A DNA stretch of 64,000 bases from a bacterium (GCA_023267635.1 JAHFMX010000004.1:2837-66836); one strand, 5' to 3'; numbered from the stretch's first letter, positions 8,624 to 55,578 are shown. Notes: generated from the sequence alone by a model not told the origin. Numbers and translations are program-made.

Positions 8624-8697
8624 GACGCAGTGGCGAAGTGGCCTAACGCTGCGGTTTGCAAAACCGCCATTCGCGGGTTCGACTCCCGCCTGCGTCT
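8624..8697 (+). tRNA. tRNA-Cys (GCA)
   Basis: Acceptor GACGCAG/CTGCGTC, anticodon stem GCGGT/ACCGC with loop TTGCAAA, T-arm GCGGGTTCGACTCCCGC. Confidence 0.85.
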
Positions 8698-8715
8698 CAC
8701 GAAGTGAGTAAAGGA

Positions 8716-8739
8716 AAAAGCCACCTGCGTGGCTTTTGT
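8716..8739 (+). terminator. terminator hairpin after tRNA-Cys
   Basis: aAGCCACctgcGTGGCTtttg. Confidence 0.45.
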
Positions 8740-8811
8740 CGGGAGTCGAATAGGGGTCGCGAAGTCTTCTGTTTCGAGTATTCACGAAACTAGACTTTGT
8801 GACCGAATCTC

Positions 8812-8830
8812 CCCGCCTGCGTCTCACGAA
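8812..8830 (+). repeat. direct repeat of tRNA-Cys 3' end
   Basis: cccgcctgcgtctcacgaa identical to 8685-8703, 127 bp downstream; preceded by a degenerate T-arm-like gaccgaatctcccc and an inverted T-arm fragment gggagtcgaa (8741-8750). Confidence 0.5.
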
Positions 8831-8863: not shown

Positions 8864-8946
8864 GCCCGGGTGATGGAATGGTAGACATAGAGGACTTAAA
8901 ATCCTCGGCTGGTTACAGCGTGCGGGTTCGAGTCCCGCCCTGGGCA
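8864..8946 (+). tRNA. tRNA-Leu (TAA)
   Basis: Acceptor GCCCGGG/CCTGGGC, anticodon stem GAGGA/TCCTC with loop CTTAAAA, long variable arm, T-arm GCGGGTTCGAGTCCCGC. Confidence 0.85.
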
Positions 8947-8953
8947 CATGAAA

Positions 8954-8996: not shown

Positions 8997-9118
8997 GCAG
9001 GGCGGGACTCGAACCGCGGGCCGCAACCTGCGAAGAGCAGGTGTAGGTTTCGAGGCAAGCATGCCGAGAGGCGAGTCCCGCTGCCAAGCTTCGAATCTGC
9101 TGATTCGCCTGGGCACAT
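8997..9118. other. tRNA-Leu-derived structured element / decayed pseudo-tRNA (identity unresolved)
   Basis: Starts with inverted T-arm/acceptor fragment gcagggcgggactcgaacc (18/19 to tRNA-Leu 3' end) and ends with direct cgcctgggcaca; internal 10-bp long-range stem gcgggactcg (9002-9011) / cgagtcccgc (9074-9083); cannot be folded as a cloverleaf on either strand. Confidence 0.3.
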
Positions 9119-9995: not shown

Positions 9996-10050
9996 TCCCG
10001 GGCACAAATGAAAAAACACATCAAAGATGTGTTTTTTCATTTGTGCCCGG
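9996..10050. repeat. perfect 26-bp inverted repeat (hairpin) overlapping the 3' end of tRNA-Leu(TAG)
   Basis: cccgggcacaaatgaaaaaacacatc aaa gatgtgttttttcatttgtgcccggg; right arm includes the tRNA acceptor 3' strand; acts as terminator for the minus-strand tRNA. Confidence 0.65.
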
Positions 10051-10125
10051 GAAAGGACTTGAACCTTCATGAGTTGCCTCGCTTGCTCCTAAGGCAAGTG
10101 CGTCTACCAATTTCGCCACCCGGGC
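10044..10125 (-). tRNA. tRNA-Leu (TAG)
   Basis: Minus strand: GCCCGGGTGGCGAAATTGGTAGACGCA, anticodon stem CTTGC/GCAAG with loop CTTAGGA, long variable arm, T-arm. Confidence 0.85.
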
Positions 10126-52995: not shown

Positions 52996-53004
52996 TGGTA
53001 TAAT
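52996..53004 (+). promoter_or_regulatory. extended -10 box TGGTATAAT, leaderless trmD
   Basis: ATG at 53012 lies 7 nt after the box. Confidence 0.5.
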
Positions 53005-53011
53005 GTCAATT

Positions 53012-53707
53012 ATGAGATACCACGTGGTAACAATCTTCCCAAACATGCTCGACTCGTATTTTGCAGAGTCGATTATTTCTCGTGCTGTAGAGAGTAAATT
53101 AATTGAAATTAATACCTACGCGCTTCGCGAATACACAACTGATAAACATCGTCGAGTTGATGGTAAGTCATACGGTGGCGGTCCTGGTATGGTGATGTGG
53201 GTTGATCCAATCATTAACTGTGTAGAAAAAATTCAGAAGAAAATTGCTCGCCGAAAAACTGCAAAAGTGCTTGTGGTTATTTTCAACGCGGGTGGAGACA
53301 TGTTTACCAATACGATTGCAAAAAGTTCTGCTACTAAGTACACAGATATTATTTTTATTTGTGGTCGCTATGAAGGAATTGATTCGCGAGTGAAAAAGAT
53401 TTTGAAAGCAAAAGAATGGAGTATTGGAGAGTATGTGCTCACTGGAGGAGAGCTTCCTGCCATGATTTGTATCGATGCTATTTCTCGACAGATTAAAGGA
53501 GTGTTGAATGACGATCTTTCTCTTGAGGAAAAACGTATGGCGTCCCACGAGATATACGCTCGTCCAGAAATATATGAATATAAGAATAAAAAGTATCGAG
53601 TACCGAAGGTTCTTCTTTCTGGTAACCATAAATTGATTGATGAGTATCGTGCGAAAAAAGAAAACACGATTGGTAAGAAAATAAAAACCGATGTATCTAA
53701 AGCTTAA
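53012..53707 (+). CDS. trmD: tRNA (guanine37-N1)-methyltransferase
   Basis: MRYHVVTIFPNM, SPOUT knot region GRYEGIDSR. Confidence 0.85.
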   Translation: MRYHVVTIFPNMLDSYFAESIISRAVESKLIEINTYALREYTTDKHRRVDGKSYGGGPGMVMWVDPIINCVEKIQKKIARRKTAKVLVVIFNAGGDMFTNTIAKSSATKYTDIIFICGRYEGIDSRVKKILKAKEWSIGEYVLTGGELPAMICIDAISRQIKGVLNDDLSLEEKRMASHEIYARPEIYEYKNKKYRVPKVLLSGNHKLIDEYRAKKENTIGKKIKTDVSKA

Positions 53708-53903
53708 AGTTATTCCTGATTCTAAAATCGAAAAAGTGGAGCAATTAAAAGACGATGAGTATCGTATTTGGGTGCGCGCTCCAGCGGAGAATAATCATGC
53801 AAACAATCGAGTTTTGGAAATTGTTCGTGAATTATATCCGCAGATGAAAGTTCGTCTTGTTTCTGGGCATACGAGTCCTTCCAAGATTGTTTCGGTGGGG
53901 TAA
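53691..53903 (+). CDS. DUF167/YggU-family protein
   Basis: 70 aa; ...NNHANNRVLEIVRELY...VRLVSGHTSPSKIV matches the DUF167 pattern. Confidence 0.65.
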   Translation: MYLKLKVIPDSKIEKVEQLKDDEYRIWVRAPAENNHANNRVLEIVRELYPQMKVRLVSGHTSPSKIVSVG

Positions 53904-53906
53904 GTT

Positions 53907-53915
53907 TGGTAGAAT
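53907..53915 (+). promoter_or_regulatory. extended -10 box TGGTAGAAT upstream of tRNA-Thr
   Basis: 25 nt before tRNA start. Confidence 0.4.
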
Positions 53916-53940
53916 GAGCGCTACTTGTTTTAGGTTACAT

Positions 53941-54013
53941 GCCAAGATAGCTCAGTTGGTAGAGCACTTCCATGGTAAGGAAGAGGTCGCGGGTTCAATT
54001 CCCGCTCTTGGCT
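53941..54013 (+). tRNA. tRNA-Thr (GGT)
   Basis: Acceptor GCCAAGA/TCTTGGC, anticodon stem CTTCC/GGAAG with loop ATGGTAA, T-arm GCGGGTTCAATTCCCGC. Confidence 0.85.
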
Positions 54014-54062
54014 CAGAAATTAAAAAGCACCGGTAAGGTGTTTTTTAATTTCTGAGCCAAGA
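54006..54062. repeat. perfect 21-bp inverted repeat (terminator hairpin) incorporating the tRNA-Thr 3' end
   Basis: tcttggctcagaaattaaaaa gcaccggtaaggtg ttttttaatttctgagccaaga. Confidence 0.65.
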
Positions 54063-54182
54063 GCTTTGAAAGGGGTCGGGGAAACGATAGTTTCCCCGTA
54101 GAGGAGAGTAGTGAGTGTACTCGCGAACGTTGAGAACCGTGGGTTCTCAAAACCGAAGCTTAGCGATAGCGTAGCGGAGGTT

Positions 54183-54202
54183 GCTCTTGGCTCAGAAATT
54201 AA
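54183..54202 (+). repeat. direct repeat of tRNA-Thr 3' end plus trailer
   Basis: gctcttggctcagaaattaa identical to 54004-54023, 179 bp downstream; preceded by degenerate T-arm-like gtagcggaggttgc. Confidence 0.5.
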
Positions 54203-54299
54203 CCTCTTGTAGTCGATTCCCGCTCTAAATTAAGATTCGACAAAACCCTTAATTTTGAGTAGTGTAAGACTTAATTGTTCAACTACTACGGGAGGTTAT

Positions 54300-54650
54300 A
54301 TGGCAGAAGATGCCGAGCTTGGCCCGTCGTTAAGGCGGTTGCTCAAGTGGATTACGAAGAAATACAAAATAGAAAAAGAAATTGCTAAAGAGCATCTTGG
54401 CTTTAATCCACCATCCATCGAAATGTTCATGGTGCTCTCAAGTGCCATGAGGCGCAGGATTTTTAAGGAAGGGAAAAATCCCACCTTCGATGAGCTTATT
54501 TCAAAGCTAGTTGATTCTGGATATGTTCATCGGTTCACTGGTTACCATGATCCAAATCATCCAGAAATCAGACTATCAAAAGAAAGCACTTTCTATTGTC
54601 TTACAAAAAAAGGTGAGGAAGCAAAAATAATAGTGGTGCGAAAACGCTAA
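54300..54650 (+). CDS. small hypothetical protein (possible winged-helix)
   Basis: Start at MAEDAEL with SD gggagg 4 nt upstream. Confidence 0.4.
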   Translation: MAEDAELGPSLRRLLKWITKKYKIEKEIAKEHLGFNPPSIEMFMVLSSAMRRRIFKEGKNPTFDELISKLVDSGYVHRFTGYHDPNHPEIRLSKESTFYCLTKKGEEAKIIVVRKR

Positions 54651-54696
54651 ACGCTGCCAGAAATGGTGGCGTTTATTTTTTGCTATACTAAGCAAA

Positions 54697-55578
54697 ATGG
54701 AAAATAATAATCTTATTGATGCTGAAATCGCTGAACTGGAAAATCTCATGAATGGGGTTGATTTTTGGAATGATAAAGAGAAGGCTCAGGACACTATCAA
54801 GAAGATAAAAGAACTAAAAGATAGACGTGATGGAGTTGGAGCTCTCGATAAAGGAAATGCAATTCTTACACTCTTAGCTGGAGCTGGAGGAGATGATAGC
54901 GAAGACTTCACTCGCATGTTGTTTGAAATGTATGACGCGTACTGTAAACGAAAAGGATATTCATATAGTGTTCTTCATGATAATAAAAATGAGCGTGGAG
55001 GATTTCGTAATCTTACGATAGAAATTGATGGCAAGAACGCCTATGGAAATTTGAAACAAGAATCAGGAGTACACAGACTCGTACGCATCTCACCATTTAA
55101 TGCACAAGCAAAGCGCCACACATCATTTGCTCTTGTGGAAGTGTTGCCTGTAATTCCAGCTGTTGAACAAACACCAATCGCTCCAGAAGATATTCGTATC
55201 GAAACATCTAAGTCATCTGGCCCTGGTGGGCAAAATGTGAACAAGCGAGAAACAGCAGTTCGTATTGTGCACATTCCTACAAATATCGCAGTTCATGTAG
55301 CAACAGAACGAGAACAAGAGCGCAACAAACAAAAAGCACTCGAAATTTTGGCTGCGAAATTGTACAAGATACAAGAAGAAGAGCGACAAGCAGAAATTGA
55401 AGGAAGGCAGATTAGTAAGACGATGGAAATAGAATGGGGGAATCAGATTCGCTCGTATGTTCTCCATCCGTATAAGATGGTGAAAGATCACAGAACAGAT
55501 GTGGAAACGAGTAACATCGAAGCGGTTCTTGAAAAAGGAGAGATCGATGAATTCATTGAAGCTGAAAAGAAGCTGTAA
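54697..55578 (+). CDS. prfB: peptide chain release factor 2 (N-terminally short, no programmed frameshift)
   Basis: GGQ (SGPGGQNVNK) and RF2-specific SPF (RISPFNAQ) motifs; 293 aa. Confidence 0.8.
   Translation: MENNNLIDAEIAELENLMNGVDFWNDKEKAQDTIKKIKELKDRRDGVGALDKGNAILTLLAGAGGDDSEDFTRMLFEMYDAYCKRKGYSYSVLHDNKNERGGFRNLTIEIDGKNAYGNLKQESGVHRLVRISPFNAQAKRHTSFALVEVLPVIPAVEQTPIAPEDIRIETSKSSGPGGQNVNKRETAVRIVHIPTNIAVHVATEREQERNKQKALEILAAKLYKIQEEERQAEIEGRQISKTMEIEWGNQIRSYVLHPYKMVKDHRTDVETSNIEAVLEKGEIDEFIEAEKKL

Follow-up and report, generated by a model that had tools for sequence, protein, structure and literature searches.

The window considered here, a 64,000-nucleotide (nt) stretch of bacterial DNA (GCA_023267635.1, JAHFMX010000004.1:2837-66836), carries behind its tRNA-Thr gene a segment, positions 54024-54202, that is probably a copy of a widespread family of small, non-coding, structured insertion elements occupying tRNA 3' ends in Patescibacteria. 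This family, referred to below as F1, has apparently not been described so far, and no account of an element of this type was found in open-access papers and preprints, the coverage of which was incomplete. In the window, a probable stump of an element of a second, related family, F2, follows the F1 copy. The related contigs (numbered with an L below) bear labels of patescibacterial groups (Nomurabacteria, Paceibacterota or Parcubacteria), and one metagenome contig of the European Nucleotide Archive (ENA) is identical to the window across the whole region.

The tRNA-Thr gene and the copies of its 3' end

The tRNA-Thr gene has no encoded CCA and is continuous with a set of repeats of its own tail. 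Its last 10 nt together with 10 nt of the trailer make up a 20-mer, GCTCTTGGCTCAGAAATTAA, which occurs exactly three times in 64 kb, always without mismatches (0.01 occurrences expected; three were reached in none of 100 shuffles). The locus is organized as follows:

53941-54013, plus strand: intact tRNA-Thr(GGU) gene (ARAGORN; Rfam tRNA model, 73.2 bits, E = 1.6e-15)
54004-54023, plus strand: first copy of the 20-mer (T1): 2 nt that end the T-stem, then the acceptor 3' strand with the discriminator, then 10 trailer nt
54024-54044, plus strand: inner hairpin of A-tract, GC clamp and T-tract, AAAGCACC GGTAA GGTGTTTT, at the tip of a 28-bp hairpin
54045-54064, reverse complement: inverted copy of the 20-mer (repeat analysis; fold)
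54065-54182, plus strand: conserved F1 core, 118 nt between the inverted copy and T2 (fold; covariance model R1; covariation)
54183-54202, plus strand: second 20-mer in direct orientation (T2), repeating the tRNA 3' end and trailer on the right-hand side
54203-54234, plus strand: putative remnant of an F2 element 3' end, CCTCTTGTAG, then a partial third tRNA 3' copy TCGATTCCCGCTCT, then the trailer AAATTAAG

The initial annotation of this DNA, made from the sequence alone, had reported a 20-nt direct repeat at 54183-54202 and a perfect 21-bp inverted repeat separated by 14 nt. The former is exact, with no mismatch and a start-to-start spacing of 179 bp between T1 and T2, while the latter is real and longer than had been stated: T1 and the inverted copy form the outer part of a hairpin at the tRNA-Thr end, whose 28-nt arms (54004-54031 / 54037-54064) are 96% complementary and enclose a 5-nt loop. 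Its inner part (GCACC-GGTAA-GGTGT, then T6) looks like an intrinsic terminator; it was not listed by a terminator consensus scan, and the T-run is itself paired in the 28-bp hairpin. The inverted copy has two alternative partners, T1 in the upstream hairpin (28 bp) and T2 in a closing stem round the core (20 bp). In the minimum-energy fold of the tRNA co-transcript it pairs with the real tRNA tail, which cotranscriptional folding of the tRNA would presumably prevent. The whole region 53941-54300 folds with z = -11.1, and 54045-54202 alone with -78.1 kcal/mol (z = -8.7), as a 19-bp closing stem round four hairpins. The DNA between the direct copies is thus highly structured, with both hairpins named in the initial annotation, and non-coding, as had also been proposed: only two short unsupported frames overlap the 179-bp segment (59 aa, running through the tRNA, and 45 aa, antisense, 54013-54150).

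A T-arm-like stretch had been placed before the second direct copy. There is none in that position; the T-arm-like fragment TCGATTCCCGCTCT (repeat family D3) lies after T2, at 54213-54226. It is a third partial tRNA copy without the 8 nt TGGCTCAG, and the sequence 54203-54226, when compared by eye, is akin to F2 3' ends, which consist of CTTGTAG and a copy of the T-loop, T-stem and acceptor (L046, TTTGTCGAAGATTCCCGCTCTTGGCTCA; L032, ACTTGTAGTCAATTCTGCTCAACGGCTCA). We therefore read 54203-54234 as a probable stump of an earlier or neighbouring F2 unit; the same order, F1 and then an F2 stump, is found in L023.

The two alternative partners of the inverted copy and the T6 behind the inner hairpin would also suit a terminator/antiterminator switch acting in cis and controlling read-through from the tRNA into the downstream small open reading frame (ORF) and prfB. 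In addition, TAACCTCTTGTAGT (54200-54213, the end of T2 and the beginning of the F2 stump) is complementary in 12 of 14 positions to ACTACGGGAGGTTA (54285-54298), which contains the Shine-Dalgarno sequence of the ORF starting at 54300; this pairing could mask the ribosome-binding site or be due to chance. However, the downstream genes vary between F1 copies, many copies precede a terminator of their own or another tRNA, relatives with the same downstream gene occur without the element, and no regulatory family of Rfam was matched. We regard such a switch as improbable.

The conserved core

The core of the window element contains the following parts:

Window core, 5' end: 5' box TTTGAAAGGGGTC
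54077-54085 / 54090-54098: P2 hairpin (ggggaaac/gtttcccc) with the loop GATA
Between P2 and the optional hairpin: junction GTAGAGGAG
About 54108-54128: optional hairpin
54130-54138 / 54142-54150: P3 hairpin, containing gagaacc/ggttctc (54132-54138 / 54142-54148)
54151-54154 / 54179-54182: 3' hairpin closed by AACC / GGTT

The hallmarks of F1 are the GGGAAAG-GGGTC box, P2 with its 4-nt loop, the GTGGYGGA junction and the P3 hairpin. Across the family (here and below, statements on F1 copies from metagenomes hold among the matches listed) the core is about 85-120 nt long and, where linked to a tRNA, always lies on the tRNA strand.

We aligned the cores of 68 distinct metagenome copies, not selected for P3 and not including the window sequence. 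In this alignment 98.3% of the cells are paired, and double-sided changes number 118 against 33 ± 6 in shuffles, the signal being lost when the partners are slid. Compensatory changes were found at five of the eight P3 pairs (for instance, U-A 39 / C-G 28, or A-U 28 / G-C 24 / C-G 13), and the loops are of 4 nt, mostly GNNA in P2 and GNNR in P3 (GCAA, GCUG, GAGG, GAUG). The two core hairpins are maintained by compensatory change. A covariance model of the same 68 copies, R1, matched the window at 54064-54134 with 49.3 bits (E = 1.9e-11), which was the sole strong match in 64 kb; it also matched the elements of L013, L045, L020, L024, L054 and L023, and on 100 metagenome stretches it recovered 114 copies, up to three per stretch. 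The closest relatives of the window core (85% identity over 85 nt) are copies at non-tRNA sites, and not those behind the tRNA-Thr of related species.

No Rfam family accounted for this motif. With Rfam 15 at permissive thresholds, the window and eight related loci gave only tRNA and chance hairpin matches, and the search of the segment suggested in the initial annotation thus pointed to no functional RNA family; the RtT model had no match at E <= 10 in window positions 53000-55500 nor at E <= 1 in the eight related loci.

F1 copies in metagenomes

The motif GGGTCGGGRAAACG-N2-8-GTTTYCCYGTRG was found in at least 120 metagenome stretches; by our estimate, chance would yield such a pattern about once or less in a collection of that size. 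The 124 F1 copies identified include 15 cut by a contig end and 109 uncut, and 63 of the latter are preceded by a same-strand tRNA ending 7-112 nt upstream; these tRNAs represent 17 amino-acid types. Several other copies sit behind tRNA-like genes missed by ARAGORN, and no opposite-strand tRNA was seen near F1 copies. In 48 of the 63 cases, the acceptor 3' strand with the discriminator (9 nt, at most one mismatch) recurs 90-130 nt after the core start. The identity of the direct copy usually starts in the T-loop or T-stem and stops 1-6 nt past the discriminator, but in L082, L094 and L196 it extends through the trailer and terminator over 50-70 nt with at most one mismatch; such long near-perfect repeats point to recent events. 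A single long hairpin, built of the T-loop-to-3'-end part of the tRNA, a terminator-like hairpin and the inverted copy, is present in 51 of 60 copies (median z = -6.6). In most family members a terminator-like hairpin occupies the position of window 54024-54044, its sequence being unrelated.

We also considered an origin of the right-hand copy from mature tRNA. A CCA is present in this copy where the gene has none in six units (four tRNA types), against one unit with the opposite; these counts are near chance and were not used.

The initial annotation had named, as one of two explanations, a tandem pseudo-tRNA. The fragments of a tRNA 3' half in the segment would correspond to a decayed tRNA of this kind behind tRNA-Thr. 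Neither ARAGORN nor the Rfam tRNA model found anything in 54015-54300, the core has hairpins with 4-nt loops and no D, anticodon or T arms, and the same core stands behind tRNAs of 17 other amino-acid types, which leaves a decayed tRNA hardly tenable.

Presence and absence among relatives

We compared about 45 related species in which trmD has a tRNA-Thr gene downstream. In about 18 of these, tRNA-Thr(GGU) or tRNA-Thr(CGU) is followed by a hairpin, an inverted copy, a structured core and a direct copy, as in the window. The cores of these loci fall into two families, F1, to which that of the window belongs, and F2, with the core ..GACATGAACTGCTTCATGTC..GAATACGGGGTCGCG-hairpin-TGTGACC. In each species both copies match the end of its own tRNA: TGAGCCAAGAGC / GCTCTTGGCTCA in the window, TGGAGCCGATGAG / CTCATCGGCTCCA in L054 and TGGAGCCGTTGGC / ..ACGGCTCCA in L045. 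The copies in the window span the acceptor strand and trailer, not the T-loop, and the same is true of the sub-group L020, L045 and L054.

L012, whose TrmD is 94% identical, is the closest relative at the species level; there, only 14 nt lie between the same tRNA-Thr and the leader that begins at 54235 in the window, and the R1 search of this locus found no element. Likewise, L022 is empty and L020 filled at the same tRNA before the same downstream gene. The lack of the segment in L012 and L022 makes it an insertion or deletion difference between relatives rather than a fixed part of the locus. The comparison across relatives proposed in the initial annotation thus gave an absence in these two, and of the outcome that had been named there as contrary, a functional RNA conserved at identical length in all relatives, one part was found, a conserved structured motif, whereas the length of the segment is not constant in all relatives.

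The orthologous locus of L118 (a 1351-bp contig, minus strand), with the same leader as window 54235-54299 and the same small ORF, carries F2 and F1 in tandem. The left arm of its F1 matches the tail of another tRNA type (..CCAGCCCGGCGCAC) and its right-hand copy is Thr-like (GTCATCGGCTCC); these chimeric flanks suggest that elements located at different tRNA loci have recombined.

Integration into tRNA genes classically leaves direct repeats of the tRNA 3' end, and the segment had initially been interpreted as the attL/attR attachment-site remnants of an element once integrated at the tRNA-Thr 3' end. One part of this interpretation stands, since the duplication of the tRNA 3' end goes with inserted DNA that is absent from L012, and the third partial copy at 54213-54226, reaching into the T-loop, would agree with it as well. 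The other part, a leftover of a deleted integrase-type island or prophage, we find very improbable. The repeats enclose a conserved motif of 118 nt, which recurs behind many different tRNAs and in at least 120 contigs; no integrase gene or fragment of one was found within or beside the repeats, the 179 bp between them being too short for a recombinase gene; and att scars contain no inverted copy. The 20-mer, proposed as an att core, and the F1 and F2 motifs had no match in 2.9 million viral contigs, where the 20-mer of the P2 hairpin gave one isolated match (L011), and the segment 54024-54202 had none in phage and plasmid records.

Targets other than tRNA genes and a possible mechanism

At several sites the F1 core adjoins the start of the genes of TypA (L085), EF-G (L101) and LepA (L146, L107), antisense to the gene. 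In these GTPase genes, the inverted copy is complementary to the DNA coding for AH(I/V)D(H/A)GK, and the direct copy spans this motif exactly to the start codon. The element strand reads there GTCAAYRTG.GCAAT, which is similar to the T-loop GGTTCRA. Three paralogous genes struck at one conserved sequence, with the gene left complete, fit a sequence-directed insertion accompanied by selection, while a tRNA-related function would not predict such sites.

The following scheme could account for these features. The element would enter at a T-loop-like motif (GTTCRA / GTCAAY), and the target would be duplicated from this motif rightwards over a variable distance, at least to the gene end. The direct copy after the core leaves the upstream tRNA intact, and only those insertions would survive that leave a complete gene, with a duplication extending as far as the tRNA 3' end or, for an antisense gene, its start codon, for which reason most repeats would end directly behind the gene. 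Since the inverted copy has a different sequence at each site and cannot be carried between sites, it would be produced from the local target while the element inserts, by a template switch or snap-back. It always abuts the core by the end complementary to the start of the right-hand copy, and this fixed orientation suggests a strand break at the motif followed by a template switch, as in the inverted-triplication models of PMC4689423 and PMC10766183. The inverted and direct copies would close the core into a long stem-loop, the putative recognised or mobile form. The element would be transcribed by read-through from the tRNA promoter and, being devoid of a gene of its own, would be inserted by a trans-acting enzyme encoded elsewhere. 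Simple snap-back at the terminator was rejected as a general origin of the inverted copy: at the GTPase sites and in L079 and L082, this copy is not a mirror of everything upstream.

Could the whole structure have arisen when replication switched templates between the hairpins of the T-arm and the terminator, as a direct-inverted-direct triplication without any mobile element? The order of the copies is indeed that of an inverted triplication, the structure that replication template-switch models aim to explain (PMC4689423 and PMC10766183), and the first junction is centred on a hairpin. However, the second junction always holds the same conserved core of ~100 nt, in hundreds of loci and next to unrelated targets, so that spontaneous switching alone is insufficient. 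We consider it quite improbable as the full explanation, although it may describe one step of the insertion.

A bolder variant of the scheme, which we regard as doubtful, takes the core as a mobile RNA, tRNA-sized, folded into four helices and cotranscribed with the tRNA, that integrates at T-loop-like motifs of DNA or RNA by an RNA-level step. Such an RNA would become attached by a reaction resembling reverse splicing or would be reverse-transcribed in trans, the closing stem being regenerated by copying the target. If true, it would be a bacterial counterpart of tRNA-linked retroelements similar to short interspersed nuclear elements (SINEs), or a self-inserting ribozyme.

A functional RNA as the main alternative

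The compensatory changes in the core are also what one would expect of a functional small RNA gene located in tRNA transcription units, like RtT behind tyrT/tyrV of Escherichia coli, the core being the product. The tail copies would then form a stem resembling a tRNA minihelix, trimmed or stabilised by RNase P, RNase Z and the CCA-adding enzyme, and the copies would have spread by local duplication together with tRNA ends, which is compatible with mobility. This reading is possible, although in our opinion less probable than an insertion element. The constant location of F1 on the tRNA strand agrees with it, as do the closing stem, which brings T-stem and acceptor sequences together in the manner of a minihelix, and the E. 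coli precedent, in which every 178-bp unit shares 19 nt with the 3' end of tRNA-Tyr. A further argument comes from L183, L106, L091, L114 and L130, where the core, with no copies of the tRNA end at all, exactly fills a spacer between two tRNAs or abuts a tRNA 5' end; in the spacer-filling copies the core 3' end ..CGAC abuts position +1 of the next tRNA. Such cores would be freed by tRNA-processing enzymes as an RNA of about 85 nt. On the other hand, a processing stem need not copy the neighbouring tRNA, and the 5' ends of the TypA, EF-G and LepA genes serve to build this same architecture in antisense, where tRNA mimicry would be senseless. The element is, furthermore, missing in the closest relatives, and in the window the discriminator and trailer are paired in the stem too, so that no NCCA-like end remains free.

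Several observations weigh against the interpretation of F1 as an insertion element, and the exact filling of tRNA spacers, which fits release of an RNA by tRNA-processing enzymes better than a selfish insertion, is one of them. Copies sharing a contig resemble each other no more than do copies from different contigs (median 0.735 vs 0.76), tandem units and L120 being exceptions, and recent bursts are thus not indicated. Neither an integrase nor a transposase nor a reverse transcriptase was found in or adjoining the segment, and clustering of 334 ORFs located near the 124 F1 copies yielded a single recurrent family, a helix-turn-helix (HTH) ORF, at six loci and in no fixed position. The empty and filled sites form two pairs only, in fairly diverged species, and the boundaries of the insert are not base-exact. 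In the closing stems, G·U and A·C mismatches are about equal (5 vs 6) and uninformative, so that neither the strand nor the level (RNA or DNA) of selection is indicated; the F2 helix GGTCGCG / TGTGACC, with two G·U pairs conserved as judged by eye, is an exception to this absence of bias. Finally, we know of no mechanism that gives both an inverted and a direct target copy round an insert, and this step of the scheme is a conjecture. Taken with the evidence above, these points leave an insertion element as the probable, by no means certain, identity of F1.

Other units and the gene neighbourhood

Element modules stand behind four of the seven tRNAs of the window, each with its own inverted and direct copies, and the genes of tRNA-Lys, tRNA-Tyr and tRNA-Gln are followed by plain terminators. 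Besides that of tRNA-Thr, the modules are the following:

8624-8698, plus strand: tRNA-Cys, then a minimal F2-type unit at about 8738-8828
8740-8751 (about), plus strand: inverted copy CGGGAGTCGAA of the tRNA-Cys unit, followed by AGGGGTCGCG-hairpin-TGTGACC and the direct copy CCCGCCTGCGTCTC at about 8812-8826
8864-8947, plus strand: tRNA-Leu(UAA), then, at about 8998-9118, a unit whose core is of a third kind
8998-9015 (about), plus strand: inverted copy CAGGGCGGGACTCGAACC of the tRNA-Leu(UAA) unit, whose core is CGCGGGCCGCAACC... and whose direct copies are split (about 9072-9081 and 9108-9117)
10043-10125, minus strand: tRNA-Leu(UAG), then an F2 unit at about 10042-9811

In the tRNA-Leu(UAG) unit, a perfect palindrome including the acceptor 3' strand is followed by the F2 core, the copy of the T-loop and T-stem has decayed, and a further partial copy lies beyond.

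The genes identified near the tRNA-Thr locus are trmD, a DUF167 gene and prfB, with ftsE and ftsX further downstream (precomputed Pfam calls on the identical contig). Two features directly follow the F2 stump:

54235-54299, plus strand: native leader of the small ORF, including the Shine-Dalgarno sequence (blastn: L012 5034-5084 vs window 54235-54285, 80%)
54300-54650, plus strand: ORF of 116 aa, conserved upstream of prfB (homologues adjoin prfB in related genomes)

The small gene with a Shine-Dalgarno sequence noted initially is thus present, and it is a neighbour of the element, not a part of it. Neither this ORF nor one of 239 aa had a Pfam family match. The release-factor gene at 54697-55578 encodes only 293 aa, and its PCRF-domain match begins at profile position 97 of 194; the product appears to be a shortened protein of the release factor 2 (RF2) type without an evident frameshift site.

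Some of the related loci have peculiarities of their own. Downstream of trmD-DUF167 (L005-L072), tRNA-Thr(GGU) and tRNA-Thr(CGU) occur in either orientation and order depending on the species, in some cases with genes between them, and this region appears to be a rearrangement hotspot coinciding with the elements. In L003, a 764-bp ENA contig, the assembly of the tRNA-Thr locus breaks inside the tRNA, at position 37. The locus of L020 is found again in L024, a sequence labelled Polynucleobacter that terminates in a poly-C run; mis-binning or an artefact end is the probable explanation. The tRNA-Thr(GGU) of L047 (4841-5121) and L029 (5474-5731) is split after position 37 by ~199 nt and ~183 nt, respectively; the inserts are conserved and structured, and these tRNAs are not called by ARAGORN. 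The insert looks like an intron, whereas Rfam intron families had no match to it at E <= 1.

The HTH ORFs, of 200-280 aa with an N-terminal HTH and a conserved LYWGEG motif, lie within 1 kb of six F1 copies, and no Pfam family reaches threshold in them. They include:

L129, 3253-3960
L140, 5989-6696
L161, 1404-2252
L183, 828-1439
L170, 532-1320

Comparison with known systems and significance

In layout, the nearest precedent of F1 is the rtT repeats of the E. coli tyrT-tyrV locus, which are likewise non-coding units of ~180 bp located directly downstream of a tRNA on the same strand and, like the window unit, end in a copy of the tRNA 3' end. The reference locus has three units of 178 bp, of which the last overlaps tyrV by 19 nt, and the RttR RNA is annotated within the repeats. 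The resemblance is one of layout only: F1 has no sequence or structure match to RtT or any other Rfam family, and rtT is a single locus in enterobacteria, whereas F1 stands behind tRNAs of at least 18 amino-acid types and at non-tRNA sites and is present or absent among relatives. As in F1, integrase attachment sites duplicate the 3' part of a tRNA, often from the T-loop, and keep the tRNA intact, and successive events leave partial copies. However, F1 has no recombinase and no cargo, its insert is of 100-200 nt and an inverted copy is present; besides, its repeat matches each host tRNA, sometimes with the trailer, while integrase islands use a portable attP.

MITEs (miniature inverted-repeat transposable elements), REP/REPIN sequences and Rickettsia palindromic elements share with F1 small size, lack of a protein, hairpin formation and multiple copies, as well as variable presence among relatives and mobilisation in trans, and the window element has perfect 20-nt terminal inverted repeats as MITEs do. 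In F1, unlike MITEs, these terminal repeats are copies of the local target, different at every locus, and the conserved part is interior; the direct repeat is of 12-70 nt against 2-10 nt in MITE-type repeats, and the native terminator lies between its left copy and the element. Casposons integrate at the 3' ends of tRNA genes or at the EF-2 gene with target duplications of about 14-15 bp. They are large, encode Cas1 and a polymerase and have terminal repeats of their own, whereas F1 encodes no protein and strikes GTPase genes at the 5' end via a T-loop-like sequence. Finally, inverted triplications and tandem inversion duplications have the same direct-inverted-direct order and junctions centred on hairpins, and quasi-palindromes are known sites of template-switch mutation (PMC7202029); these are, however, sporadic rearrangements of host DNA, while the F1 junction always holds the same structured core.

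Repeats of this kind are easily misread in annotation as att scars, pseudo-tRNAs or terminators. They supply portable homology at tRNA genes, and the tRNA-Thr region is rearranged and inverted among related species, with chimeric flanks in L118. In the primary transcript, the inverted copy, as modelled, might compete for the tRNA's own acceptor strand. F1 is a candidate for a new class of structured RNA in Patescibacteria, the non-coding repertoire of which is poorly known, and, as a gene-less insert flanked by inverted and direct copies of its local target, it lies outside the described transposition schemes and may expose a new way of DNA or RNA movement.

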